Below, piece after piece: positions 6,649-64,000 of a stretch of 64,000 nt of DNA; position 1 is the stretch's first letter; every line of letters begins with the position of its first letter. The notes below the pieces were generated by a model. It did not search any database, was not told the origin of the DNA, and saw only the letters and a list, made by a program, of their open reading frames with translations. Both the position numbers and the translations under genes were made by a program. This DNA comes from Candidatus Shapirobacteria bacterium (lineage in GTDB: Bacteria > Patescibacteriota > Microgenomatia > UBA12405): positions 90,497-154,496 of the forward strand of contig JAUYJS010000005.1 in assembly GCA_030698565.1 (NCBI GenBank). Direction: 5' to 3'.

Positions 6649-7284
6649 ATGCAGGTGGAACACAAAATTATTTCTATTGGTTTTATAACGGTCGCTATGG
6701 CAATTTTATTATTGTCACTAATGAGGCCTTTTGGTGTCCGTGCTCAATATTATCAGCCAGGTGCTGCTAGTAAATCTATTGTGGTTGATAAAAAAGTAAG
6801 AGCCGTAAACCAAACTAATTATTTTGATAATTTAACTAGTAGTCAAAAGTTATTTTTTGACAACGATTTGATTGAATTTAGTATTACTATTCAAAATGGT
6901 GGTCAAGAAACCCTTCGAAATATTGATGTCAAAGATTTTTTACCAAAAAACTTAAGGTTGATCTTTAATCCTGGCACGTTTAATGCGAATGGAAATACTG
7001 TTGAATGGAAGATTGATCAACTAAATCCAGGGGAAAGTAAAAACTATTTGATTAGAGCTAAAATTATCGGAGTTGCTAATTTAAAACTTACTTCTAATTT
7101 GCAATTAACCAATACTGCATCGGCAAACGTTGATAATATTTCAGATCAAGATAGATCAAGCTATTTTATTGGTGTTCAGACTATCCCTAAGACTGGAAAT
7201 AATGACATATTGGTTAAAACAATTTTAATTTTGAGTGTTGCTGGTGGAAGTGTTTACTTGAGAAAAGTGGCCAGAGGATATTAA
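6649..7284 (+). CDS. Secreted DUF11 (conserved-repeat) surface protein with a C-terminal IPKTG sortase sorting signal
   Basis: The N-terminus has a hydrophobic signal/anchor. The central region resembles a DUF11 repeat. The C-terminus reads TIPKTGNND, then a hydrophobic stretch ILVKTILILSVAGGSVYL, then the basic tail RKVARGY. That is a classic LPXTG-type cell-wall sorting signal. Confidence 0.65.
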   Translation: MQVEHKIISIGFITVAMAILLLSLMRPFGVRAQYYQPGAASKSIVVDKKVRAVNQTNYFDNLTSSQKLFFDNDLIEFSITIQNGGQETLRNIDVKDFLPKNLRLIFNPGTFNANGNTVEWKIDQLNPGESKNYLIRAKIIGVANLKLTSNLQLTNTASANVDNISDQDRSSYFIGVQTIPKTGNNDILVKTILILSVAGGSVYLRKVARGY

Positions 7285-30459: not shown

Positions 30460-31608
30460 ATGGAAAATTCCAAATTATCAATAGACCAAAAGATTGAATT
30501 AATTAGTAGGAATTGTCAGGAAGTTTTAACTCCTAAAGATCTGAGATATCTATTGGAAAGCAACACTCCACTTAATCACTACATTGGTTTTGAAATTTCG
30601 GGAATGGTGCATTTGGGAACTGGTTTAATTTCAATGGGAAAGATTGCTGATTTTTTGCAAGCAGGAGTTAGTTGTCAAGTTTTTTTGGCTGATTTTCATT
30701 CTTATTTGAATAATAAGTTGGGTGGAGATTGGGATAAAATTCGATGGGCAACCGAGAATTATTTTAAACAAGCTTTAATCGCTTCTTTAAAATGTTTTAA
30801 CGTCGATGAAGCGCAAGTCAAGTTTGTGATGGGAAAAGATTTATATGAAACTAACTTAGTCCATTGGGAAACATTTATGGAAGTGGGTAAAAATGTAACT
30901 TTATCTAGGAATTTAAGGTCAATTTCGATAATGGGGAAAAAGAAGGGTGCTGATATTGATATGTCTACTTTGTTTTACCCCCCACTTCAAGTAGCTGACA
31001 TTTTTACATTAAAGGTTAATCTAGTTCAAGCAGGCATGGATCAGAGAAAAGCACATGTCGTGGCTAGGCAAGTTGCTGAAAAATTAACGATCAATCCTCT
31101 CAGGGACAGTAAGGGTAATAAAATTGCACCAGTGGCTGTTCATCAAAATTTAATCGCAGGACTTTCAGGTCCAGAAGCGGTTGATTTGGGACAAAATAGT
31201 GAAGATGTTCAAATAGATTTAAAAATGAGTAAATCAAAACCAAACTCAGCAGTTTTTGTGCACGATACTCCTGACGAAATTAGAAATAAGGTGCGGAAGG
31301 CTTATGGTCCACCTAAAATTACAGAATATAATCCATTAATTAACTGGGTGCAGACATTAATTTTCTGGGGTCAAGAACAGGGCGAGTTTACAATAAATAG
31401 ACCGGATAGATTTGGGGGTAACGTTACTTATAATAGTGTCTCTGGACTAATAAAAGATTACCAAGATGAAAAACTTTATCCAACTGATTTGAAAAATGCT
31501 ATTTCTGATTGGTTGATTGAAAAGCTAGAACCAGCTAGAAAACATTTCGAAAATCCAATAGCAAAAGAAGGGTTGGAAAAAATGAAGGAGCTGATAAACA
31601 TAAAATAA
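30460..31608 (+). CDS. tyrS: Tyrosyl-tRNA synthetase, archaeal/eukaryal type
   Basis: HYIGFEISGMVHLGTG (HIGH-region analogue) and KMSKS are present. The C-terminal block INRPDRFGGNVTYNS...LYPTDLKNAISDWLIEKLEPARK is closely co-linear with archaeal TyrRS. There is no bacterial S4 domain. Confidence 0.85.
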   Translation: MENSKLSIDQKIELISRNCQEVLTPKDLRYLLESNTPLNHYIGFEISGMVHLGTGLISMGKIADFLQAGVSCQVFLADFHSYLNNKLGGDWDKIRWATENYFKQALIASLKCFNVDEAQVKFVMGKDLYETNLVHWETFMEVGKNVTLSRNLRSISIMGKKKGADIDMSTLFYPPLQVADIFTLKVNLVQAGMDQRKAHVVARQVAEKLTINPLRDSKGNKIAPVAVHQNLIAGLSGPEAVDLGQNSEDVQIDLKMSKSKPNSAVFVHDTPDEIRNKVRKAYGPPKITEYNPLINWVQTLIFWGQEQGEFTINRPDRFGGNVTYNSVSGLIKDYQDEKLYPTDLKNAISDWLIEKLEPARKHFENPIAKEGLEKMKELINIK

Positions 31609-38891: not shown

Positions 38892-40436
38892 GTGTTAACA
38901 AAGATTTTCAGCGTGGCAAGTATTGGACTAAAAGCGATTGATATCGATGTGGAAGTAAATGTGGCAGAAATGGGTTTTCCGGGATTTGGGATTGTTGGTT
39001 TAGCTAGTAAAGCGGTTGAAGAATCGAAAGAAAGAATTAAAACTGCGATCGTAAATTCGGATATTGAGTTTCCAAATAAAAAAATTACGATTAATTTGGC
39101 TCCAGCTGACATACCAAAAGAAGGCTCTTGCTATGATTTGCCCATGGCTATAGGAGTAATAGCGTCTACGGGTGAGGTTAGATTGCCAAGTGAAAAATCA
39201 TATTTTTATGGAGAACTTTCTTTGGATGGAGGTCTAAGACACACCAAGGGCGTATTTTTGTTAGCAATTTTAGCCAAAGAACAGGGAATTAAAAATATAT
39301 TTGTACCTCGTCTTTGCGCAAATGAAGCAAGTGTAATTGAAGGTATAAAAGTATTCCCGGTTGACAGTTTAAAAAGTCTTATTAGACATTTAAATGGCGA
39401 TAAATTAATTCAACCACTAATCACAATTGATAAAGAAGAGTTGATTTTTGAAGCCGAACCAGAATTTGATTTTAGTGAAATTTTGGGGCAAGAACAGGCA
39501 AAAAGAGCATTGGAAATTGCGGCGGCTGGAGGACATAACATTTTTATGATGGGGCCACCTGGATCAGGAAAAACAATGCTTTCCCGAGCATTACCAGGTA
39601 TTTTACCTATACTAACCGAAAAAGAAAGTTTGGAAGTTACTAAAATTTATTCTATTTCTGGAAACATTCCTCCAGGCGGTTCTCTGGTTCGTCGAAGACC
39701 GTTTAGATCACCCCATCATACAACTTCACAAATTGGATTAATTGGCGGTGGGAGTAACCCCAGACCTGGTGAAGTGTCTTTGGCTCACAGAGGCGTACTT
39801 TTTTTGGACGAATTTCCTGAGTTTAATCGGCATACTATCGAGGCTTTGAGACAGCCAATTGAAGATGGCAATATAAATATTTCCCGGGCTAGTGGATCGG
39901 TAAATTATCCAGCCCAATTTATGTTGGTAGCTTCGGCAAATCCTTGCCAGTGTGGGTTTTTGGGCGATACCAAAAAGGAATGCAAATGTAATGTTCACCA
40001 GATTCTAAATTATCAAAGAAAACTATCTGGACCAATTATGGACAGAATTGATTTGCATTTGAATGTACCAGCTGTAGATATAAATAAATTAATGATATTG
40101 CCGGATAAGAATGAAAATAGATCGGCTAAATCAAGTGATATTCGAAAAAAAGTGATGGATGCTCGTGAAATTCAAACACAAAGATTTAAAAATACTAATA
40201 ATCTTTACAGCAATTCTGATATGAAAAATATTCACTTAAAAGAATTTGCCAATATGACCAACGAAGCCAATTTATTATTAAAACAGGCAGTTAATAAATT
40301 TTCTCTGTCAGCCCGAGCTTATTTTAGATTGATAAAAGTGTCGCGAACTATTGCTGATTTGTCGGCTAGTGAAGCTATTTTAGATAAGCATGTGGCCGAA
40401 GCACTTCAATATAGAATCAGATCAGAAAGCGTATGA
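38892..40436 (+). CDS. comM: YifB/ComM family Mg-chelatase-like AAA+ ATPase
   Basis: N-terminal Lon-like domain (FSVASIGLKAIDIDVEVN) and an AAA+ core with Walker A and B, GGHNIFMMGPPGSGKTMLS ... LFLDEFPEF. 514 aa. Confidence 0.85.
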   Translation: MLTKIFSVASIGLKAIDIDVEVNVAEMGFPGFGIVGLASKAVEESKERIKTAIVNSDIEFPNKKITINLAPADIPKEGSCYDLPMAIGVIASTGEVRLPSEKSYFYGELSLDGGLRHTKGVFLLAILAKEQGIKNIFVPRLCANEASVIEGIKVFPVDSLKSLIRHLNGDKLIQPLITIDKEELIFEAEPEFDFSEILGQEQAKRALEIAAAGGHNIFMMGPPGSGKTMLSRALPGILPILTEKESLEVTKIYSISGNIPPGGSLVRRRPFRSPHHTTSQIGLIGGGSNPRPGEVSLAHRGVLFLDEFPEFNRHTIEALRQPIEDGNINISRASGSVNYPAQFMLVASANPCQCGFLGDTKKECKCNVHQILNYQRKLSGPIMDRIDLHLNVPAVDINKLMILPDKNENRSAKSSDIRKKVMDAREIQTQRFKNTNNLYSNSDMKNIHLKEFANMTNEANLLLKQAVNKFSLSARAYFRLIKVSRTIADLSASEAILDKHVAEALQYRIRSESV

Positions 40437-40807
40437 AACAACTTAATTATTTAAAAGGTAAAAATGGTGAGTTAATTGCCAAAAACTATCTTTTGGAAAA
40501 AGATTATAAATTTGTAGAGCAGAATTACAAAAATTATTTGGGCGAAATTGATTTGATTATGAGTTTTAGAGATATTTTAGTTTTTGTAGAAGTTAAATTA
40601 AAAGTCGGCAATAGATTTGGTTTACCAGAGGAAATGATTAACAGAAACAAAATTAGTAGAGTCAAAAGAGTGGCTGAAAGTTATTTGGTGTTGAATCCAA
40701 TAATATCTCAAAATTATAAAAAATACAGATTGGATGCGATTTGTGTGGTGGTCAATGAATTGAATTGTATCAAAAGAATTAATCACTACAAAAATATTGA
40801 ATTTTAA
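40433..40807 (+). CDS. yraN: YraN-family (UPF0102) endonuclease
   Basis: GELIAKNYLLEKDYKFVEQNYK...GEIDLIM...LVFVEVK is the YraN signature. It overlaps comM by 4 nt. Confidence 0.75.
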   Translation: MKQLNYLKGKNGELIAKNYLLEKDYKFVEQNYKNYLGEIDLIMSFRDILVFVEVKLKVGNRFGLPEEMINRNKISRVKRVAESYLVLNPIISQNYKKYRLDAICVVVNELNCIKRINHYKNIEF

Positions 40808-41693
40808 TATGAGATATTGGAAAAAATGGCCTATTAACCAGATCAATGTAGATGATGAAAGATTTCCGAAATATTTAAAATCGATTAAAACATGTCCTAA
40901 AAAATTATTTTTTAGAGGTAATTGGAACTCAAATATTTTTGAAAAAACTATTGGCGTGGTTGGCAGTAGACGAATTACCAGATATGGCCGTGATGTAATT
41001 GCAAAATTTGTACCAACTTTTGTCGGTAATAAAATTACAATAATTTCTGGATTCATGTATGGAGTCGACAGTGAAGCTCATAAAACATGTGTTGAAAACG
41101 GTGGAAAAACGATAGCTGTTTTAGGCGGTGGACTTAATTATATTTATCCTCCGGAAAATGATAATTTATATTCTTTGATTTTAGAAAACGGCGGATTAGT
41201 ATTGTCTGAATACGAAGCTGATTTTAAACCAACTTTATGGAGTTTTCCTCAAAGAAATAGAATTGTATCGGCCTTATCGACCATAGGAATTCTGGTTATT
41301 GAAGCTGGTTTAAATTCAGGCAGTTTAATTACGGCAAAAATTGCCAAAAAGCAGGGTAAAAAAATATTTTCAATTCCGGGTCAAATTAATTCTTCAACGT
41401 CTACTGGAACTAATTGGTTAATTAAAAATTATAATGGGATTCTGGTGAGCAGTCCTGATGATATTTTGGAGAGTAGTTTTAAAATTAACGCTACTCAAAT
41501 TGATTTGTTTGAGCCGGATTTAAGTGAGATTGAAAGAAAAATAATCGGTTTATTGAAGAGTGAAGAATTAAGCGTCGACGAATTGTCGATTAAATTAAAT
41601 TTAGCAATTGCTGATATTTCAATTAATTTATCAATGTTATTAATGAAGAATTTGATTGAGGAAGAAGCGGGGAAAGTTTATTTAAAAAATTAA
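40797..41693 (+). CDS. dprA: DNA processing protein DprA (Smf)
   Basis: The Rossmann core GVVGSRRITRYG...ISGFMYGVDSEAHKTCVENGGKTIAVLGGGLNYIYPPEN is present. It overlaps yraN by 11 nt. Confidence 0.85.
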   Translation: MNFNMRYWKKWPINQINVDDERFPKYLKSIKTCPKKLFFRGNWNSNIFEKTIGVVGSRRITRYGRDVIAKFVPTFVGNKITIISGFMYGVDSEAHKTCVENGGKTIAVLGGGLNYIYPPENDNLYSLILENGGLVLSEYEADFKPTLWSFPQRNRIVSALSTIGILVIEAGLNSGSLITAKIAKKQGKKIFSIPGQINSSTSTGTNWLIKNYNGILVSSPDDILESSFKINATQIDLFEPDLSEIERKIIGLLKSEELSVDELSIKLNLAIADISINLSMLLMKNLIEEEAGKVYLKN

Positions 41694-42851: not shown

Positions 42852-42923
42852 GGCCCCATCGTCTAGTGGTTCGGACACCAGGTTCTCATCCTGGTAACCG
42901 GAGTTCAATTCTCCGTGGGGTCA
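42852..42923 (+). tRNA. tRNA-Glu (anticodon CUC)
   Basis: Cloverleaf read manually: acceptor GGCCCCA/TGGGGTC, D-arm GTC-TAGTGGTTCG-GAC, anticodon stem CCAGG/CCTGG with loop TTCTCAT (CTC), T-arm CGGAG-TTCAATT-CTCCG, discriminator A. No CCA is encoded. Confidence 0.8.
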
Positions 42924-42986
42924 CACTTTTTTTTATAGGTCAAAAACGTGAAGATACCCTATATTTTGCTTATTTTCACGGTTATG

Positions 42987-43015
42987 TTGACAAAATCGTG
43001 AATAATCTCTATAAT
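42987..43015 (+). promoter_or_regulatory. Consensus sigma70 promoter TTGACA-17nt-TATAAT, 8 nt upstream of the Fic ATG (leaderless transcript likely)
   Basis: TTGACA at 42987-42992 and TATAAT at 43010-43015 with an exact 17-nt spacer. CGTGAA half-sites lie at about 42957 (inverted as TTCACG at about 42975) and 42997, overlapping the promoter. Confidence 0.5.
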
Positions 43016-43023
43016 TTGAGCAT

Positions 43024-43902
43024 ATGACTAAAATATCTAATGTTTTTAATAAAATAAATTCGCTTCGTCAAAGATATTATCAAGCTTTTAATGGTAAAGA
43101 TGCCCTTATTCAGCTTATTAGCGAGTCGGAAGTGGCTGAACAAGTTTATAATTCTAATGCTATTGAAAATAGTACTCTGACTCTTGAAGAAACTGAAAAA
43201 ATTCTTTTACAGATTGATTTGGACAGGTATATTACTGAACGGGAAATTTTTGAAGCTAAGAATTTGGCTCGAGTGGTTATTTATATAGATAAGAAAGCTA
43301 AAGAACAAGAACTTAATTTGGAGATGATTTTATCGCTTCATAAAATGCTGATTTCTAATATTCGAGATGATATTGCTGGAAGATTTAGAAAAGAAAATGA
43401 ATTTGTTCGAGTCGGTAGTTATATTGCTCCAAACCCAAAAGAAGTGATTGAGAGGCTTGAAAAAATGTTATCTGAATATAATGCCAGTAATAATGAAAAT
43501 ATTATTAAGCGTATTGCTCGTTTACATTTAACATTTGAATGTACTCATCCTTTTATTGATGGTAATGGTCGAATTGGTAGAGTTATTAATAACTATTTAT
43601 TAATAAGGGAGGGATTTGTACCTATAAATATAAAGTTTATTAATCGACAAAAATATTATGATGCTTTTAAGGAGTTTGAAGAAAAACAGACAACAACAAT
43701 TATGGAAGATATAGTAGGAAAAGCATTAACTAATAGTTATTATAAAAGATTAGCTTATTTAGAAGGTAAAAAAATCATCACTTTAATCGATTATGCTAAT
43801 AATAATAAACTTTCACACTCAAACCTTTTAAATAAGGCTGGTAGACAAACTATTGAAGCTTTTTTAGAAAAAAATGTTTGGAAAATTGGGGTTGATCAGT
43901 AA
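43024..43902 (+). CDS. Fic/Doc family protein (putative AMPylator) with an N-terminal autoinhibitory motif
   Basis: The canonical Fic motif HPFIDGNGRIGR, that is HxFx(D/E)GNGRxxR, is intact. The N-terminal SNAIEN matches the (S/T)xxxE(G/N) inhibitory-helix motif. Confidence 0.85.
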   Translation: MTKISNVFNKINSLRQRYYQAFNGKDALIQLISESEVAEQVYNSNAIENSTLTLEETEKILLQIDLDRYITEREIFEAKNLARVVIYIDKKAKEQELNLEMILSLHKMLISNIRDDIAGRFRKENEFVRVGSYIAPNPKEVIERLEKMLSEYNASNNENIIKRIARLHLTFECTHPFIDGNGRIGRVINNYLLIREGFVPINIKFINRQKYYDAFKEFEEKQTTTIMEDIVGKALTNSYYKRLAYLEGKKIITLIDYANNNKLSHSNLLNKAGRQTIEAFLEKNVWKIGVDQ

Positions 43903-43981
43903 AAACTTGTCCATTTTTCTGTATAAATTATATATACAATATTTTCGTTAATAAAATAAATAATTTCAAAATTAAATATTA

Positions 43982-44008
43982 GAGTTCGATTCTCCGTGGG
44001 GTCACACA
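43982..44008 (+). repeat. attR-like direct repeat of the tRNA-Glu 3' end
   Basis: GAGTTCGATTCTCCGTGGGGTCACAC (43983-44008) against GAGTTCAATTCTCCGTGGGGTCACAC in the tRNA (42901-42926), 25/26 identical. Confidence 0.65.
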
Positions 44009-44133
44009 TTGGGACTAAGGTACTACTAAATGGTGGTTTTATTCCTAAATATGGGGCTAATTTTGGAGTTCCAGAAGTTAAATCTGAGTATGTAGGTGGA
44101 CTATCAAAGATAAGACCAAAGAAGGCAGCTCTT

Positions 44134-58935: not shown

Positions 58936-59334
58936 TTATTTGGTTTTAACCAATTTTGCTGTGTAGATTATCTGTCTTAGAATACCGTCTGGGCCTTCAA
59001 TTTGATTGGTTCCAGATAGTGCAACATATTGAGCTAAATAATCGGATAAAGCTGTTTTGAGTTCTTTCATTTGATATTGATGTTCTTTAATTTTTTCCAT
59101 TAACTGAACATTTTCCGGTTGTTTGACAAGTCTTTCTTTGGCAACACTTTTATTTTTAGCTGTTTTTTTACATTCCTTTAGGGCTTCTTGGTATTCGTCA
59201 TCGTTTTCCAATACGGAATTAATCATTTCTTTGTATTCTCTTAGTTCTTTTTGAATTTCTTCAACGCGAACAGTTGAGGTGTTGATTAATGATTCAACGT
59301 TTAAAAGATTTAAGGCTTGGTTTTGATCAGACAT
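58936..59334 (-). CDS. Hypothetical coiled-coil protein
   Basis: 132 aa, heptad-rich, no motif. Confidence 0.35.
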   Translation of the reverse strand: MSDQNQALNLLNVESLINTSTVRVEEIQKELREYKEMINSVLENDDEYQEALKECKKTAKNKSVAKERLVKQPENVQLMEKIKEHQYQMKELKTALSDYLAQYVALSGTNQIEGPDGILRQIIYTAKLVKTK

Positions 59335-59344
59335 AAGTTTAACT

Positions 59345-60397
59345 TTAGCAATTTAAAAATTCGCATTCAAGACTCAAAAGTTCATCAACAGATTTTAGCC
59401 TGATTAAATCTGCTCGAAGATGCTTGGCGTTGGTTAATCCGCTAGTATACAAAAGGAAATGTTTTCGAAGACTATCAAAACAGCGTTTTGGAAAAACATC
59501 GGAATATGTTTGAGTGTGCAACAACATAGCAGAAAATCTTTCCTGGGGCAAAGCAGTGTAATTAGTAAACACCCATGGATTGCCCATGGCGGCTCGACCG
59601 ATCAATACTCCATTAACTCCGTATTTTTGGGCCATTTCTATGGCTTGAGATTTTGATTGAATATCGCCATTTCCCCAAATTAGAGTTTTAGTATTTTTGG
59701 CTAATTTAACAGCTAAGGCAATATTGTCCCAATCAGCGATACCAGAGTAACCTTGTTTTAAGGTACGACCATGTAGAGTAATAAAATCTAAGTCATGCGA
59801 CAAAAGGTGAGGGAACCAGGACTCAACTGTGGGCTTATCGACTCCCAATCTGGTTTTTACTGATATGGTGGGTATAATTTTTTCTCGATCTGATTTTAGA
59901 CCAGTATATTTAAGGTTTCTCTCAATTACTTTTAATGTTTTTAAATTTAAGTCAATATCTTTTATTGTAATTTTATTTTCTAACCAATCAGAAACTGCTT
60001 TTTGAACAGATTTGATAATTTTTGAGGCTAATTCTGGCTGGTTTATTAGAGCGGCGCCACTTCCGTTTTGAGTGACAGTTTTGGCTGGGCAGCCCATGTT
60101 GACATCAACACCATCAAAACCCAAATGACATAAAACTAAAGCAGCCTTATAAAAACCTTCGGGATCCTTGCCAAATAGTTGCCCAATGATCGGCCTTTCT
60201 TCAGTTTTATACAGAAGAATGTCGTAAAGTTTTACTCCACCACGAGTTAATCCCTCGGCACTAGCAAATTCAGTGAAAGTAACATCGGGCTTGGCGATTT
60301 TGGTTTGGACCAAACGAAAAGGTTCGTCGGTTATACCATCCATTGGTGAGAGGCCAACAATAAAATTATCTTTAATAAATTCTTTAAAACTTTTCAT
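59345..60397 (-). CDS. dus: tRNA-dihydrouridine synthase
   Basis: TIM-barrel FMN motifs: LSPMDGITDEPFR, a catalytic Cys region (NMGCPA) and KTRLG. Confidence 0.85.
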   Translation of the reverse strand: MKSFKEFIKDNFIVGLSPMDGITDEPFRLVQTKIAKPDVTFTEFASAEGLTRGGVKLYDILLYKTEERPIIGQLFGKDPEGFYKAALVLCHLGFDGVDVNMGCPAKTVTQNGSGAALINQPELASKIIKSVQKAVSDWLENKITIKDIDLNLKTLKVIERNLKYTGLKSDREKIIPTISVKTRLGVDKPTVESWFPHLLSHDLDFITLHGRTLKQGYSGIADWDNIALAVKLAKNTKTLIWGNGDIQSKSQAIEMAQKYGVNGVLIGRAAMGNPWVFTNYTALPQERFSAMLLHTQTYSDVFPKRCFDSLRKHFLLYTSGLTNAKHLRADLIRLKSVDELLSLECEFLNC

Positions 60398-60406
60398 TTA
60401 TAAAAA

Positions 60407-60973
60407 TTATTTCTTCTTTTTAAATCTTGTTTTACTGGCAAACTTGGCACCGATTTTGGAACCGAAATGACGAGTGACATATACGGTCTGACGCACATGC
60501 TTGGCGGAAAAATTTTTGTCAACGGGTTTGTTTTTTTTGTCACCAGAAGACTTCTCTTTATTGAATCCAAAACGCGGTTTATAGTCTTCTTTGGGCCGAT
60601 CTGGGTTTTGAGCCAGACCACTTTCCGAACTAAAACTACTTTTGTGTTTTGTTTTTTTGTAGCGTTTCTGAACAGCTTCTTCATGACGCAACCTACCCTC
60701 TTCAGTTAAATAAGGATCGGGTTGAGCGTAGTCCACAATGATATTGAGATCACCTATTCTGGTATGATGATATTTTTCTTTGGCTCTGATGGCATCGTCT
60801 AAATTTTCATATTCAACGTAGCCCATTCCCCGACTTCTACCCCAGCGATTTTTGATGATTTGCACAGAAATCACCTTACCTTCGGTAATAAATAACGAAA
60901 GAAGTTCTCCTTCTGTGGTTTTATAAGGGATACTACCTATAAATAATCTTTTTTGTGGTGTGTTATTGCTCAT
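60407..60973 (-). CDS. RRM-domain RNA-binding protein with a basic C-terminal tail
   Basis: RNP2 LFIGSIP and RNP1 RGMGYVEY, followed by a K/R-rich low-complexity tail. Confidence 0.7.
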   Translation of the reverse strand: MSNNTPQKRLFIGSIPYKTTEGELLSLFITEGKVISVQIIKNRWGRSRGMGYVEYENLDDAIRAKEKYHHTRIGDLNIIVDYAQPDPYLTEEGRLRHEEAVQKRYKKTKHKSSFSSESGLAQNPDRPKEDYKPRFGFNKEKSSGDKKNKPVDKNFSAKHVRQTVYVTRHFGSKIGAKFASKTRFKKKK

Positions 60974-61027
60974 TAAGTTGATGTATTTTACTAAAAATAT
61001 TGTAATTTTGCTTGCTACAATAAATTT

Positions 61028-61681
61028 GTGGTTAATTTTATCAAATTAATTTTAGGATCACTGCAAACTAATTGTTATCTTCTTTTTGATGATGGGACAA
61101 AAAAATGCTTTATTATCGACCCGGCAAACGAGTCGGATCTTATTAGTGAAACAATAGAATTAAAGAAATTAAAACCTGTTGGGGTTTTGCTGACACATGG
61201 TCATTTTGATCATGCGATGGCGGCAATGGATCTAAAATTAATGTATAAAATTCCTATATACGCAAATGAAAAAGATTTGTTTTTGTTAAAAAGAATTAAA
61301 AAAACGGCTGAGTTTTTTTTGAAAATGCCGGTTGAGGTTTTGGATGTTGAAAAAGTAGATATTGATTTGGAAAAATTAAGCGAAATAAATTTGGGAGAAG
61401 AAAAAATTGAAGTAATTAAAACTCCGGGTCATACATCTGGTAGTGTTTGTTTTTATTCTGCAAAGCAGAATATTTTATTTTCAGGTGATACATTATTTGC
61501 TGAAGGTTTAAGAGGTGGAACGGATCACCAATATTCATCTACAAAAGATATTTATAAAAGTATTTATAAATTAATGCAATTGCCACGAGGCACAACTGTA
61601 CTGTCTGGTCACGGAGAGGAGACAACTATTGGTTCCGAATCGGAAAGGTACGTGTTTAAGGATGAGAATAAAGAAAATTAA
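61028..61681 (+). CDS. MBL-fold metallo-hydrolase (glyoxalase II-like)
   Basis: LLTHGHFDHAM is the HxHxDH motif. A downstream His/Asp is in GHTSGS. Confidence 0.8.
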   Translation: MVNFIKLILGSLQTNCYLLFDDGTKKCFIIDPANESDLISETIELKKLKPVGVLLTHGHFDHAMAAMDLKLMYKIPIYANEKDLFLLKRIKKTAEFFLKMPVEVLDVEKVDIDLEKLSEINLGEEKIEVIKTPGHTSGSVCFYSAKQNILFSGDTLFAEGLRGGTDHQYSSTKDIYKSIYKLMQLPRGTTVLSGHGEETTIGSESERYVFKDENKEN

Positions 61682-61830
61682 CGATTTTTTTCAATTTGAT
61701 TGTAATTGAGATATAATTTTGATATTCTTGCTCGGTTAAATAGTTACCAATACTCTATTGTCCCAAAAGAACACAAGCTTTGGTAATTATCCCCGTCGTC
61801 CCGCCAGGACTAGGGGTTTTGACAATTTAA

Positions 61831-61901
61831 TACCCCGTCGTCTAACGGTAGGACAGCTGGCTCTGAACCAGCTAATTGTGGTTCGAATCCATACGGGGTA
61901 A
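61831..61901 (+). tRNA. tRNA-Gln (anticodon CUG)
   Basis: Manual fold: acceptor TACCCCG/CGGGGTA (U1-A72, as in bacterial tRNA-Gln), D-arm GTC/GAC, anticodon stem GCTGG/CCAGC with loop CTCTGAA (CUG), T-arm TGTGG-TTCGAAT-CCATA, discriminator A. Confidence 0.7.
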
Positions 61902-61943
61902 CAACATTTTAATGTTTTAATAATTTTTAGGTAAAATGAATAT

Positions 61944-62351
61944 ATGTATAAAATATCCGTAAAAGTATCACCGTCAAGTATCGAAGGGGAAGGTGTATTT
62001 ACTAATGAAGACATACCTAAAAATAATATTGTTTGGATATATAAATCAGGATATGACTTAATAATGTCAAAAGAAGATTTTAAAAAATTACCTTCCGAAG
62101 AAAAGTCTCGGATAGAAAAAATCGGATACCTTTCACCTTGGTCTAATAGATGGGTTTTCCCTCCTGAAAATGATGCTGCACAATTTACTAATCACAGTAG
62201 AAAAAATAATTTATCAACAGTTTATAATAAAAAAATTTCTGAAGAACCCTATTTTATCGCTAATAGGGATATAAGAGCAGATGAGGAACTGACTAATAAT
62301 TATTACGAGTTTGATTTATTAATTCAAAAAACCAAGCCTGATTGGGCATAA
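61944..62351 (+). CDS. Minimal SET-domain protein (putative lysine methyltransferase)
   Basis: IEGEGVFTNEDIPKNNIV is the GxG SET-N motif, AQFTNHSRKNNL the NHS motif and ADEELTNNYY the ELxxxY post-SET region. At 135 aa it is the size of viral and bacterial minimal SET proteins. Confidence 0.75.
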   Translation: MYKISVKVSPSSIEGEGVFTNEDIPKNNIVWIYKSGYDLIMSKEDFKKLPSEEKSRIEKIGYLSPWSNRWVFPPENDAAQFTNHSRKNNLSTVYNKKISEEPYFIANRDIRADEELTNNYYEFDLLIQKTKPDWA

Positions 62352-62448
62352 ATAGTTCTAATGAACTAACCATTCGACTCCAAATTTTATATTTTAATTT
62401 GAATCTCCTCTTGCGAGAATTTCCGAAACTCTACTGAGTTTTTTCCTA

Positions 62449-62471
62449 CATACGGGGTAACTATTTTAATA
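62449..62471 (+). repeat. attR-like direct repeat of the tRNA-Gln 3' end
   Basis: 13-nt exact match CATACGGGGTAAC, plus downstream ATTTTAAT shared with the tRNA flank. Confidence 0.55.
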
Positions 62472-62505
62472 AAACTCAAATTAAATATGGTAAAATCCGA
62501 ACAAT

Positions 62506-63054
62506 ATGAGTAATTTGAGGGAATATGTGAATTGGTTGCCCTTACAAGCAACAGAATATATTCCATATATAAAACCAAATGCTGGAATCCCAATAGACAA
62601 CCAAAGAATTAACTTGTCTTTACTTTGCGGAAACGAAAGAAAGATATTAAAGACTCCAGTGGATGGTGATTATAGTTTGGTTTTACAATATAAAAGTAAA
62701 GAAGGAGCTGTGGTTAGTTTTAGTACAACAGAACCGGAAAACTTGTCGGTTCTACAAATACAAGGAGCGAGAAGTAAAGAAAGTTATAGAGTTTCAATTT
62801 GTATTTTATGGATCGAACTTTTTAGTAACCAAGTAGAAAAAATGGTCACCCATGAATTAAGTCCGTTTACAAGAATTACTATGCCTAAACTTGAAGAAAT
62901 CAGTGGGTTGTATGAGACGGGAACAGAAGCGGCAATTAAAAGATACCAATACTTTGCTGATATACTTAAGTTAAGATATTCACAAAGTGAGCGTCGATAT
63001 ATGAAAGAATTAAAAACACCAGATATTGTGATTCCAGTTACGAACTGGAAGTAA
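62506..63054 (+). CDS. Hypothetical protein
   Basis: 182 aa, no motif recognised. Confidence 0.35.
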   Translation: MSNLREYVNWLPLQATEYIPYIKPNAGIPIDNQRINLSLLCGNERKILKTPVDGDYSLVLQYKSKEGAVVSFSTTEPENLSVLQIQGARSKESYRVSICILWIELFSNQVEKMVTHELSPFTRITMPKLEEISGLYETGTEAAIKRYQYFADILKLRYSQSERRYMKELKTPDIVIPVTNWK

Positions 63055-63073
63055 TAAACTATAATACTTTTAT

Positions 63074-63814
63074 ATGGAACTTAAAAACAAAGTCGCCTTA
63101 ATAACCGGTGCTTCTAAGGGAATGGGGCAATCAATAGCTGTGGCGTTAGCTAAAGAGGGGTGCTCGGTGATTATTAATTTTAAATCGGATTCTGTTTCTG
63201 CTCGGGCAGTTTTAGAAGAATGTAACAAATACTCGAATGGTAATTTAGTTTTGCAAGCTGATGTATCTAACGAAATTGAAGTCAAAACAATGTTTGAAAA
63301 AATTAAAAAGACATTCAAACATTTGGATATATTAATAAATAACGCTGGAATTTTTGACGATAACGATTCTCCTAGTAATATTGATGCTTTTGAAAACATT
63401 TATAGAAATAATTTTTTAAGCAGCATTATCGTTACAAAATACGCCTTGAAATTATTGAAAATAGGGAAAATTGTCAATATGTCTTCAATCCATGGTCGGC
63501 TCGGATACGGAAGACCAACGGCTATCAGTTATTCTGCCTTTAAAGCAGCTCTTGAAAATTACACTAAAAATTTAGCTAAAGCCCTTGCTCCTAAAATATT
63601 AGTTAATGCGATTGCTCCCGGGAGGGTAATGACTTCTATGTGGGGAAAATTAAATAACAAAGAACAGCAAGAACTAGGAAAGGCACATTTAATTAAAAGA
63701 ATGATTAAGCCAGACGAAATATCGAATGGTGTTGTTTTTATATTAAAGAATGATGCGATTTGTGGAGAAATTTTGACCATAGACGGTGGATATAGTTTGC
63801 TAACATTAGATTAG
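63074..63814 (+). CDS. Short-chain dehydrogenase/reductase (FabG-like SDR)
   Basis: TGASKGMGQSIA is the TGxxxGxG motif. NNAG and the catalytic YSAFK (YxxxK) are also present. Confidence 0.85.
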   Translation: MELKNKVALITGASKGMGQSIAVALAKEGCSVIINFKSDSVSARAVLEECNKYSNGNLVLQADVSNEIEVKTMFEKIKKTFKHLDILINNAGIFDDNDSPSNIDAFENIYRNNFLSSIIVTKYALKLLKIGKIVNMSSIHGRLGYGRPTAISYSAFKAALENYTKNLAKALAPKILVNAIAPGRVMTSMWGKLNNKEQQELGKAHLIKRMIKPDEISNGVVFILKNDAICGEILTIDGGYSLLTLD

Positions 63815-63829
63815 GTCTGTTTAAATAAT

Positions 63830-64000
63830 ATGAAAATAAACGATAAAATTTATGGTGATATCGAGATAAAGAGCAAGGTAATAATTGATTTAATAAACAC
63901 TCCAGCATTCCAAAGATTGAAAAAAATTAGCCAAGACGGCGCACCGCATTATATTCAGCCAGTAAGAAATGTCTCGAGGTACGAACACTCAATTGGAGTA
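63830..64000 (+). CDS. Partial CDS (N-terminus): HD-domain phosphohydrolase, dNTP triphosphohydrolase-like
   Basis: MKINDKIYGDIEI...LINTPAFQRLKKISQDG...RYEHSIGV matches the N-terminal motif of HD superfamily dGTPase-like proteins. It runs off the window end. Confidence 0.6.
   Translation, partial: MKINDKIYGDIEIKSKVIIDLINTPAFQRLKKISQDGAPHYIQPVRNVSRYEHSIGV

Follow-up and report, generated by a model that had tools for sequence, protein, structure and literature searches.

The interval between an MBL-fold hydrolase gene and an SDR gene in a 64-kb stretch of Candidatus Shapirobacteria DNA (hereafter the window; 33.3% GC) is probably a strain-variable hotspot at a native tRNA-Gln(CTG) gene, filled with single-gene cassettes that lack an integrase, into which a gene for a minimal SET-domain protein of 135 amino acids has been laterally inserted. 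Candidatus Shapirobacteria belong to the Candidate Phyla Radiation (CPR), bacteria whose genomes are tiny and contain few recognisable mobile elements, and for which few routes of gene exchange are known. Alignments of the window with comparator contigs, designated here by L-numbers, resolve a discrete SET cassette, its exact insertion point, its lateral movement and, next to it, older junctions at which DNA was swapped at tRNA-derived repeats. An earlier note on this DNA had proposed a horizontally inserted single gene at the tRNA; that proposal is borne out by an insert placed exactly at the tRNA 3' end, by an empty site in L067 and by codon identity to L001.

The insert was delimited against L067, a 54-kb contig found through its homolog of the MBL protein (93% identity). 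On the left, a conserved block ends with the MBL-fold hydrolase gene (61028-61681, forward strand; Pfam Lactamase_B, 2e-29), and blastn aligns window positions 59000-61720 with L067 5972-8695 at 95% nucleotide identity; on the right, window 63054-63999 aligns with L067 12156-13139 at 84%, and the content between these flanks differs. The tRNA-Gln(CTG) gene, native to its position, occupies 61831-61902 on the forward strand according to ARAGORN and 61831-61901 (60 bits) according to Rfam, the latter end being that reported in the earlier note, and it is identical to the tRNA-Gln of L067 at 72 of 72 nucleotides (nt). The note had suggested looking for empty sites at related tRNA-Gln loci, and L067 provides one: SET is absent anywhere on its locus, and its tRNA reads ...CATACGGGGTAAC|CATTCGACTCCAGCTCG, that is, straight from ...GGGGTAAC into CATTCGACTCCA (empty-site junction ...GGGGTAAC|CATTCGACTCCAG). 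The window reads ...CATACGGGGTAAC|AACATTTT... before the SET gene and ...TCTAATGAACTAAC|CATTCGACTCCAAATTT after it, with CATTCGACTCCA at 62371-62382. Because the L067 sequence resumes in the window at 62371, the SET insert is 61903-62370 (forward strand), a 468-nt cassette with a single open reading frame (ORF) that begins at the first base past the tRNA. A 41-nt spacer containing a TAAAAT box leads into the SET coding sequence (61944-62351, forward strand), and a 19-nt tail with the hairpin TAGTTC-TAAT-GAACTA closes the cassette, ending in TAAC; the same four nucleotides immediately precede the insert, and TAAC alone flanks it. Its GC content is 28.2%, against 33.3% for the window. The junction of an excised circle would read, for instance, ...TCTAATGAACTAAC joined to AACATTTTAATG.... 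A reading of AGTTCTAATGAACTAAC in the tail as degenerate T-arm and 3'-end sequence of the tRNA was set aside, its ungapped identity apart from TAAC being only 9/17.

The lateral origin of the cassette is indicated by L001, a 5.4-kb contig that covers only the Trx-to-SET part of the synteny block. The order Dus-RRM-x-MBL-tRNA-Gln-SET is that of the window, the downstream genes differ, and no repeat is present. The SET proteins of the two are 86% identical, compared with 43-63% for Trx, Dus, RRM and MBL (orf132, a fifth flanking gene outside the codon comparison, is 51% identical). Identity at third codon positions is 0.84 for SET and 0.42-0.48 for the same four flanking genes, and identical codons at conserved residues make up 0.86 and 0.44-0.56, respectively. 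At the nucleotide level, blastn aligns the SET cassette with L001 3496-4025 at 88% identity, with flanks at ~64%. Although a tRNA is normally the most conserved element, here it matches at just 61/72 positions (with compensatory changes in its stems), against 34/41 for the 41-nt non-coding spacer; the tRNA is therefore a resident of each genome, and the cassette starts where it ends. A near-identical cassette at the same tRNA end in the far more distant L001 means that SET moved laterally to the same site, and, judged by these identities, the cassette is far more recent than the two genomic backgrounds that host it. Exact-protein look-ups of the window SET and RRM, aimed at further strain variants, returned no records.

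The older junctions are marked by a 13-nt repeat. The 13-mer CATACGGGGTAAC forms the end of the tRNA (proximal copy, 61890-61902, forward strand: 3' T-stem strand, acceptor strand, discriminator and one further base) and, as the earlier note had seen, recurs exactly at 62449-62461 (distal copy, forward strand), with no other exact copy on either strand of the window. It is the sole match of at least 13 nt in the window to any part of tRNA-Gln; at up to two mismatches it has three matches against 0.47 expected, a number reached in 0/100 shuffles. Run on the window, the comparison with chance that the note had called for genome-wide leaves two exact copies in 64 kb. The note had also taken the adjoining sequence to be shared: ATTTTAAT does follow the first and second copies, but at distances of 3 nt and 1 nt, respectively, hence in shifted register, and this AT-rich word, itself nothing unusual, occurs a third time at 62391. 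Rfam recognises only the tRNA in the window and L067 intervals, and a scan of IMG/VR with the 3' 20-mer of tRNA-Gln, as a search for attP, gave as its sole match a phage-borne tRNA-Gln(TTG) on L140, which is not an attachment site.

The distal copy is also found at L067 11446-11458 and at L066 340-352. In L067 the two 13-mers lie 1955 nt apart, enclosing a 174-amino-acid orphan, a GH130 gene and a gene fragment, and the distal one is followed by a Peptidase_S51 gene. The window has at this place a second cassette with an orphan gene of 182 amino acids (cassette 62462-63054, coding sequence 62506-63054, forward strand), whose product, locus tag Q8P53_02120 on a 232-kb NCBI contig that also carries the SET gene, has one homolog in 5.8e9 proteins, at 56% identity; this homolog is encoded on L066, downstream of ACATACGGGGTAACTA, on a contig without tRNA and without SET. 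Aligned together, the three sequences show ~93% identity between L066 and L067 on the left side of the repeat and no relatedness beyond it; homology between the window and L066 is confined to the right side. Because similarity switches there among the three sequences, the distal repeat is a recombination junction. The repeat also exists in three variants: ATAC in the window, L067 and L066, ATGT in L106, L080 and L174, and ATGC in L116, L126 and L102. Because it matches the local tRNA variant genome by genome, it is a true copy of the tRNA 3' end. On this comparative evidence the distal 13-mer is the scar of a different, older junction and not an edge of the SET insert. The 78 nt between the insert and this scar (62371-62448, forward strand) can be read as the collapsed remnant of an older, L067-type cassette, 1955 nt long in L067: the left end, CATTCGACTCCA, matches L067 at 12/12 positions and the right end at 19/23 (equalled in 0/300 shuffles), while a middle piece also matches at 19/23 but is weak (equalled in 12/300). 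Homology between the window and L067 restarts at window position 63054.

The gene order on the left of the tRNA is stable and that on its right is not. The block Era-YtxH-Obg-RlmN-Trx-x-Dus-RRM-MBL-tRNA-Gln is kept in L067, L174 and L176, and in L175 without YtxH; MBL and tRNA-Gln adjoin each other in L001, L174 and L176, and a GIY-YIG ORF intervenes in L175. Past the tRNA-Gln, gene content differs in every genome (L001, L067, L174, L175 and L176). Together with scars on both sides of the tRNA, this agrees with the repeated recombination that the earlier note had suspected. On the upstream side, blastn breaks off at window 61720 (L067 8695) and resumes at window 61791 (L067 9382), so that a variable spacer of 70 nt (61721-61790, no strand assigned) stands where L067 has a 195-amino-acid orphan ORF (686 nt); neither this ORF nor the 174-amino-acid ORF of L067 has a Pfam match. 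The spacer is followed by a decayed partial copy of tRNA-Gln (61790-61819, forward strand) with the 5' acceptor strand, a D-arm-like hairpin and GGGGTTT. The note had placed a 5' copy at 61790; the shared 10-mer CCCCGTCGTC is indeed present, at 61791-61800 and again 42 nt further on at 61833-61842 (tRNA positions 3-12), but it begins one base later and is not significant alone, as tRNA pieces of 10-12 nt recur by chance at 31528, 35044 and 54156. The fragment as a whole is identical in L067, where the tRNA match is 12 nt long, and analogous 5' partial copies occur in L175 and L176. It folds as a small hairpin (-12.3 kcal/mol; z-score -1.3); a reading as a terminator was rejected, a terminator scan being negative and the fold z-score only -1.3. 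A further word, CGTCGTCCCGCC, is common to this fragment and to an insert in L139 described below.

In relatives, the positions of such scars hold small GIY-YIG ORFs of 80-106 amino acids, a downstream ORF going with a 3' tRNA copy and an upstream ORF with a 5' copy. After the tRNA of L174, such an ORF (L174 6762-7082, within the interval 6724-7083) is closed by a 14-nt tRNA-end repeat; L106 and L080 have the same arrangement (tRNA end +1 to +361), with the stop of the ORF inside the repeat and, in L106, its last codons as well. Upstream of the tRNA of L175, the ORF (in the interval 6821-7215) lies between a split 5' copy (TGCTTCGTCGT ... CTAATGGTAGGACA) and the intact tRNA, and L176 has a split 5' copy and no ORF. 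The motif TTCGCTAAAGCT is common to the start of the GIY-YIG cassettes and to the 5' scar in L176. L116 carries a collapsed cassette copy and then a tandem restart, with tandem repeats of the cassette start, and L126 carries two paralogous cassettes, each headed by the same 22-nt piece from the tRNA 3' end and an identical leader of 30 nt. In L075 (533-624), L129 and L139, the intact gene is directly followed by partial tRNA-Gln copies of its 3' part (~60 nt), which hold hairpin inserts of ~32 nt in the D-arm region; the partial copy in L075 represents a different tRNA-Gln sequence variant from its intact gene. Between 61682 and 63073 the window has no GIY-YIG ORF, and its upstream fragment and distal 13-mer fit the scar pattern seen on both sides of the tRNA.

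A short element is also recurrent behind tRNA-Gln, with the consensus (C)ATTCGACTC, a hairpin and TCGCTCA[TGC]GGC[CT]ATAGCC. Its sites include L067 9490-9570, window 62371-62382 and loci in L099, L119, L125, L093, L137, L097 and L176; it is in tandem in L137 and is followed by a small GIY-YIG ORF in L119, L125 and L093. No Rfam family corresponds to the CATTCGACTC... element, and the fold of the L067 copy has a z-score of -2.65.

As a mechanism we propose that the partial tRNA copies, 3' copies downstream and 5' copies upstream, would be scars of earlier insertions by elements since decayed, made either by site-specific recombinases acting in trans or by the small GIY-YIG cassettes found at those positions in relatives. 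The cassettes, SET included, may now spread between strains by DNA uptake and homologous recombination, with the tRNA and the scars as anchors. DprA and ComM are components of natural transformation, and uptake with homologous exchange is plausible because the window encodes DprA and a ComM-like protein.

Several points weigh against this account. The TAAC bracket is, at 4 nt, shorter than typical integrase cores (an att core usually has at least 13 nt), and microhomology could have produced it. Neither a recombinase, nor a nuclease, nor a circular intermediate was seen for the SET cassette; none of the 30 window ORFs, all housekeeping, is a recombinase, and the space searched for integrases consists of the 64-kb window and the SET neighbours in other genomes, which leaves room for one acting in trans from elsewhere in the genome. 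No CATTCGACTC element follows the cassette in L001, which makes simple homologous replacement from an L001-like donor a poor fit. The remnant reading of 62371-62448 combines two good end matches with one weak middle match, the enzyme substrate proposed below is drawn from analogy, all comparators are metagenome contigs, and L066 is only 1.66 kb long.

The alternative that survives best dispenses with site-specific machinery: tandem duplication or unequal crossing-over inside the tRNA, combined with allelic replacement after natural transformation, would generate both the repeats and the exchange. The two paralogous cassettes of L126, with the same tRNA piece and leader, are what tandem duplication predicts, and the tandem repeats of the cassette start in L116, the presence of DprA and the ComM-like gene, and the failure to find an integrase among the 30 window ORFs and 137 SET neighbours all agree with it. 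It accounts less well for one and the same SET cassette lying precisely at the tRNA end in the window and in L001: flanking DNA of ~64% nucleotide identity is too diverged, and on the right, where the two are unrelated, the homology needed for replacement is missing. In addition, both in L126 and in the Fic islet described below the repeats start within the T-arm, which is usual for att sites. We consider this alternative unlikely, though a genuine contender.

Ancestral presence and vertical descent of SET, with loss from L067 by a precise deletion at TAAC microhomology, appears very unlikely. The earlier note had named a syntenic, vertically conserved gene without a repeat in relatives as evidence against its own model, and part of this is indeed found, since the distant L001 has tRNA-Gln-SET in the same synteny and without a repeat; a 4-nt repeat at the edges of the indel would also suit microhomology-mediated deletion. 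The codon data, however, are not those of vertical descent, with synonymous-site identity of 0.84 in SET against saturation (0.42-0.48) in the four flanking genes. SET follows tRNA-Gln in 0/72 other metagenomic loci sharing the 3' half of this tRNA, nor does it do so in L174, L175 or L176, and the junction tRNA-Gln|CATTCGACTC occurs in at least five genomes (L067, L099, L119, L125 and L176) with three tRNA variants among them. Because the tRNA|CATTCGACTCC junction is thus present in several more distant genomes as well, the SET state is an insertion in the window and not a loss in L067.

The model of the earlier note itself, a single integrase-type event that delivered an islet at 61903-62448 with SET as its gene and the 13-mers as attL and attR, has become highly improbable. 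In its favour, the exact 13-mers enclose SET and no other coding sequence, single genes lie between tRNA-Gln 3' repeats in other genomes, and the window contains a Fic islet (42852-44010, 27.2% GC) with a canonical tRNA-derived repeat around one gene: tRNA-Glu(CTC) at 42852-42924 is followed by a Fic ORF at 43024-43902 (Pfam Fic, 4.5e-23; PADLOC PDC-S04, 2e-34, and SoFic, 5e-28), and a T-arm/3'-end repeat matching at 27/29 nt is found at 42901-42929 and 43982-44010. But L067, without SET, already has both 13-mers, with other genes between; the SET indel stops at 62370, 78 nt short of the distal repeat, which L066 carries on a contig lacking tRNA and SET; and the cassette in L001 has no repeat at all. 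The 13-mers accordingly do not bound the SET insert, whose edges share TAAC only; the tRNA-Glu repeat of the Fic islet is real. Among the usual marks of a tRNA island, the SET insert shows the position at a tRNA 3' end and the absence from a close relative; it has neither bracketing direct repeats of the tRNA 3' end nor an integrase. Repeats that may correspond to the attL and attR of cis-mobilizable elements (CIMEs), kept without integration or transfer genes, are seen in the composite region from the tRNA to 62461 and in the Fic islet, not in the SET insert alone.

That the distal 13-mer could be a regulatory or promoter-upstream element of the 182-amino-acid gene with a chance likeness to tRNA is scarcely credible: it does precede this gene in the window and in L066 although the proteins are 56% identical, 29 or 19 nt ahead of a conserved TGnTAAAAT box, but its spacing to that -10 box is not conserved, the same 13-mer stands before an unrelated Peptidase_S51 gene in L067, it changes with the local tRNA sequence in other genomes, and a chance match is unlikely by base composition (by hand arithmetic, ~5e-9 per position and ~6e-4 over both strands of the window) as well as by the shuffle control.

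The product of the inserted gene is a minimal SET-domain protein by every comparison made. All three SET hallmarks noticed earlier in the sole ORF between the repeat copies are present (G15-x-G17, N83-H84-S85 and E115-L-T-N-N-Y120), and Pfam SET (PF00856) matches with E=4.3e-13 and 50 bits, against a cut-off of 22.4, residues 15-120 covering profile positions 1-104 of 105. GxG binds S-adenosylmethionine (AdoMet), and the tyrosine of ELxxxY is catalytic. An alignment of 37 family members shows no variation at G15, G17, N83, H84, T117 and Y120 and almost none at S85 and E115; the family also has conserved features of its own, namely W31, Y62-x-S64, F123-D124 and a C-terminal P-x-W. Profile searches of the PDB reach the SET domains of MLL and SETD8 at ~1e-8, LegAS4 weakly (3e-4) and vSET at 5e-3. 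An AF2 (AlphaFold2) model (pLDDT 92.7, pTM 0.83) retrieves only SET domains among its top 50 Foldseek matches in the PDB, all with probability 1.00 and including EZH2, Set7, SETD8, vSET, MLL and a Plasmodium SET, with an identity to any solved SET domain of ~20-26%. With its catalytic motifs intact, we infer that the protein is an AdoMet-dependent protein-lysine methyltransferase. By analogy with characterised minimal SET enzymes, its substrate is most likely a resident DNA-binding (nucleoid-associated) or ribosomal protein, not histones.

By its sequence matches the protein is part of a large known family. The earlier note had listed minimal SET proteins from a few groups, but the family is not a rare one: the 136-amino-acid SET family has 135 close matches in CPR (44-86% identity), mostly in Saccharibacteria and Parcubacteria, and a profile search gathers 950 SET clusters at E<=1e-10. 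More distant minimal SET homologs (27-35% identity) occur on 33 viral contigs of IMG/VR (L141-L173), several of them >300 kb. Nor is the description as effector-like supported, the protein being a bare 135-amino-acid domain without a PADLOC match and with housekeeping neighbours in other genomes; secreted effectors of the LegAS4/RomA and NUE type have extra targeting or secretion regions and a eukaryotic host, features not seen for the window SET, a lone domain in a CPR bacterium. PADLOC likewise gave no match for the 182-, 195- and 174-amino-acid ORFs, and Pfam none for the 182-amino-acid ORF. These proteins form a family of conserved enzymes of 135 amino acids that lend themselves to experiment and are widespread in CPR, especially in Saccharibacteria.

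SET genes tend to lie behind tRNAs elsewhere as well. At 7/33 CPR loci the SET gene is directly 3' of a tRNA on the same strand, compared with 8/253 other ORFs from the same loci (Fisher p=5e-4), and the tRNAs concerned have six identities (Trp, Glu, Gln-TTG twice, Asn, Ser and Leu). The gaps from tRNA to SET are 1-163 nt (L016, L018, L019, L020, L022, L026 and L065; SET at ~4001); the shorter ones, of 1-25 nt, could not accommodate a promoter and thus point to co-transcription with the tRNA. No downstream tRNA 3' repeat of at least 10 nt was found near SET in these seven other tRNA-adjacent loci, no conserved partner gene accompanies the close SET family, and no integrase or transposase family recurs among the 137 SET neighbours in 27 loci, which are housekeeping genes. 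Transcription of the window SET gene probably begins at its own TAAAAT box or else continues from the tRNA. A TAAAAT/TATAAT box stands 6-9 nt before the start of SET (61932-61946), of the 182-amino-acid ORF (62488-62508) and of Fic (43003-43026); a simple promoter scan did not call these boxes, and their placement suggests leaderless or nearly leaderless mRNAs for all three genes.

A much more general proposal would be a tRNA-anchored, integrase-less cassette system in Shapirobacteria and their CPR relatives, in which a small GIY-YIG nuclease or a recombinase acting in trans would cut at or beside tRNA genes and leave partial duplicates of the tRNA on both sides, so that the tRNA end becomes a landing pad for unrelated cargo; this we regard as distinctly doubtful. 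Its second part, that cargo such as SET, Fic, orphan ORFs and glycoside hydrolases would be taken up there, accumulate in stacks, pass from one distant lineage to another and be expressed as part of the tRNA transcript, is speculative to the same degree. Were the proposal true, the enrichment of SET behind six tRNA species would be one footprint of the system.

The surroundings of the locus add a few further observations. The right flank begins with the SDR gene (63074-63814, forward strand; Pfam adh_short), whose ortholog in L067 is 84% identical in nucleotides and 91% in amino acids; this flank diverges more from L067 (84%) than the left one does (95%). A LytR-family gene is found convergent, ~570 nt past the tRNA, in L175 (7787-8911) and ~4.7 kb past it in L067, and to judge by gene content the SDR, HD and GIY-YIG genes too may be part of the variable region. 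About 1 kb upstream of the tRNA-Glu/Fic islet lie a ComM-like gene of the Mg-chelatase family (38892-40436) and DprA (40797-41693), with a 124-amino-acid ORF between them.

Under the reading that we favour, a tRNA-anchored hotspot with a laterally inserted SET cassette, the locus is a case resolved to the base pair: one unoccupied and two occupied sites, one of the latter in a distant lineage, show that one accessory gene moved between CPR lineages to the same tRNA end with no visible recombinase. If the link between GIY-YIG ORFs and partial tRNAs were causal, it would describe how CPR build small arrays of accessory genes, and repeats of tRNA ends would offer an easy way to find such genes in CPR metagenomes.

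Among known systems, the nearest are the tandem islands at the tmRNA 3' end of Dehalococcoides (ssrA islands; PMC3146451) and the accretion of ICESt1-type elements and CIMEs at the 3' ends of tRNA and tmRNA genes (PMC5704250). As there, a variable region directly follows a small RNA gene, its segments are split by direct repeats of the 3' end and have no integration genes of their own, and synteny is kept on one side only. Those islands span several kb, whereas a unit here amounts to one gene (0.35-2 kb). Neither the window nor the surroundings of SET at 27 other loci yielded an integrase or integration module; SET, as the newest insert, generated only TAAC and not a 13-nt repeat; and partial 5'-end copies also lie upstream of the tRNA. 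A second parallel is SegB, a free-standing GIY-YIG homing endonuclease of phages T4 and T6, which is reported to favour the inheritance of a tRNA locus and to drive its segmental amplification (PMC2988022; PMC13096335). The small GIY-YIG ORFs likewise adjoin tRNA-Gln (L174, L175, L106, L080, L119, L125 and L093) and lie between partial tRNA duplicates, of which the window keeps matching scars. Unlike in the phage system, however, the window interval contains no GIY-YIG ORF, the hosts are cellular CPR genomes, and the ORFs of the relatives (80-106 amino acids) are apparently a nuclease domain alone, with no obvious DNA-binding domain; cleavage of the tRNA gene by them would be a putative activity.

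The protein itself resembles the minimal SETs of virus PBCV-1 (vSET), S. pombe (Set7), P. falciparum (PFL0690c), M. mazei (Go1-SET) and C. pneumoniae (cpnSET), of which Go1-SET methylates MC1-alpha and cpnSET methylates Hc1, both DNA-binding proteins of their own organisms (PMC3980110). It shares with them the bare domain of ~120-140 amino acids, the GxG, NHS and ELxxxY motifs and the predicted fold (TM ~0.6-0.75), and differs in its conserved family residues and in being only ~20-26% identical to the solved ones. The units also recall integron cassettes: they are promoter-poor, single-ORF units at a fixed anchor, their content varies between close strains, and junction sequences outlive the gene between them. 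Unlike integrons, they come with no IntI among the window ORFs and no attI, their ends show by eye no attC-like imperfect inverted repeat, and the sole shared junction element is the tRNA-derived repeat. Taken together, the locus is a variant of the familiar tRNA-linked variable region; what sets it apart are single-gene units without an integrase and partial copies of the tRNA that flank the intact gene on either side.

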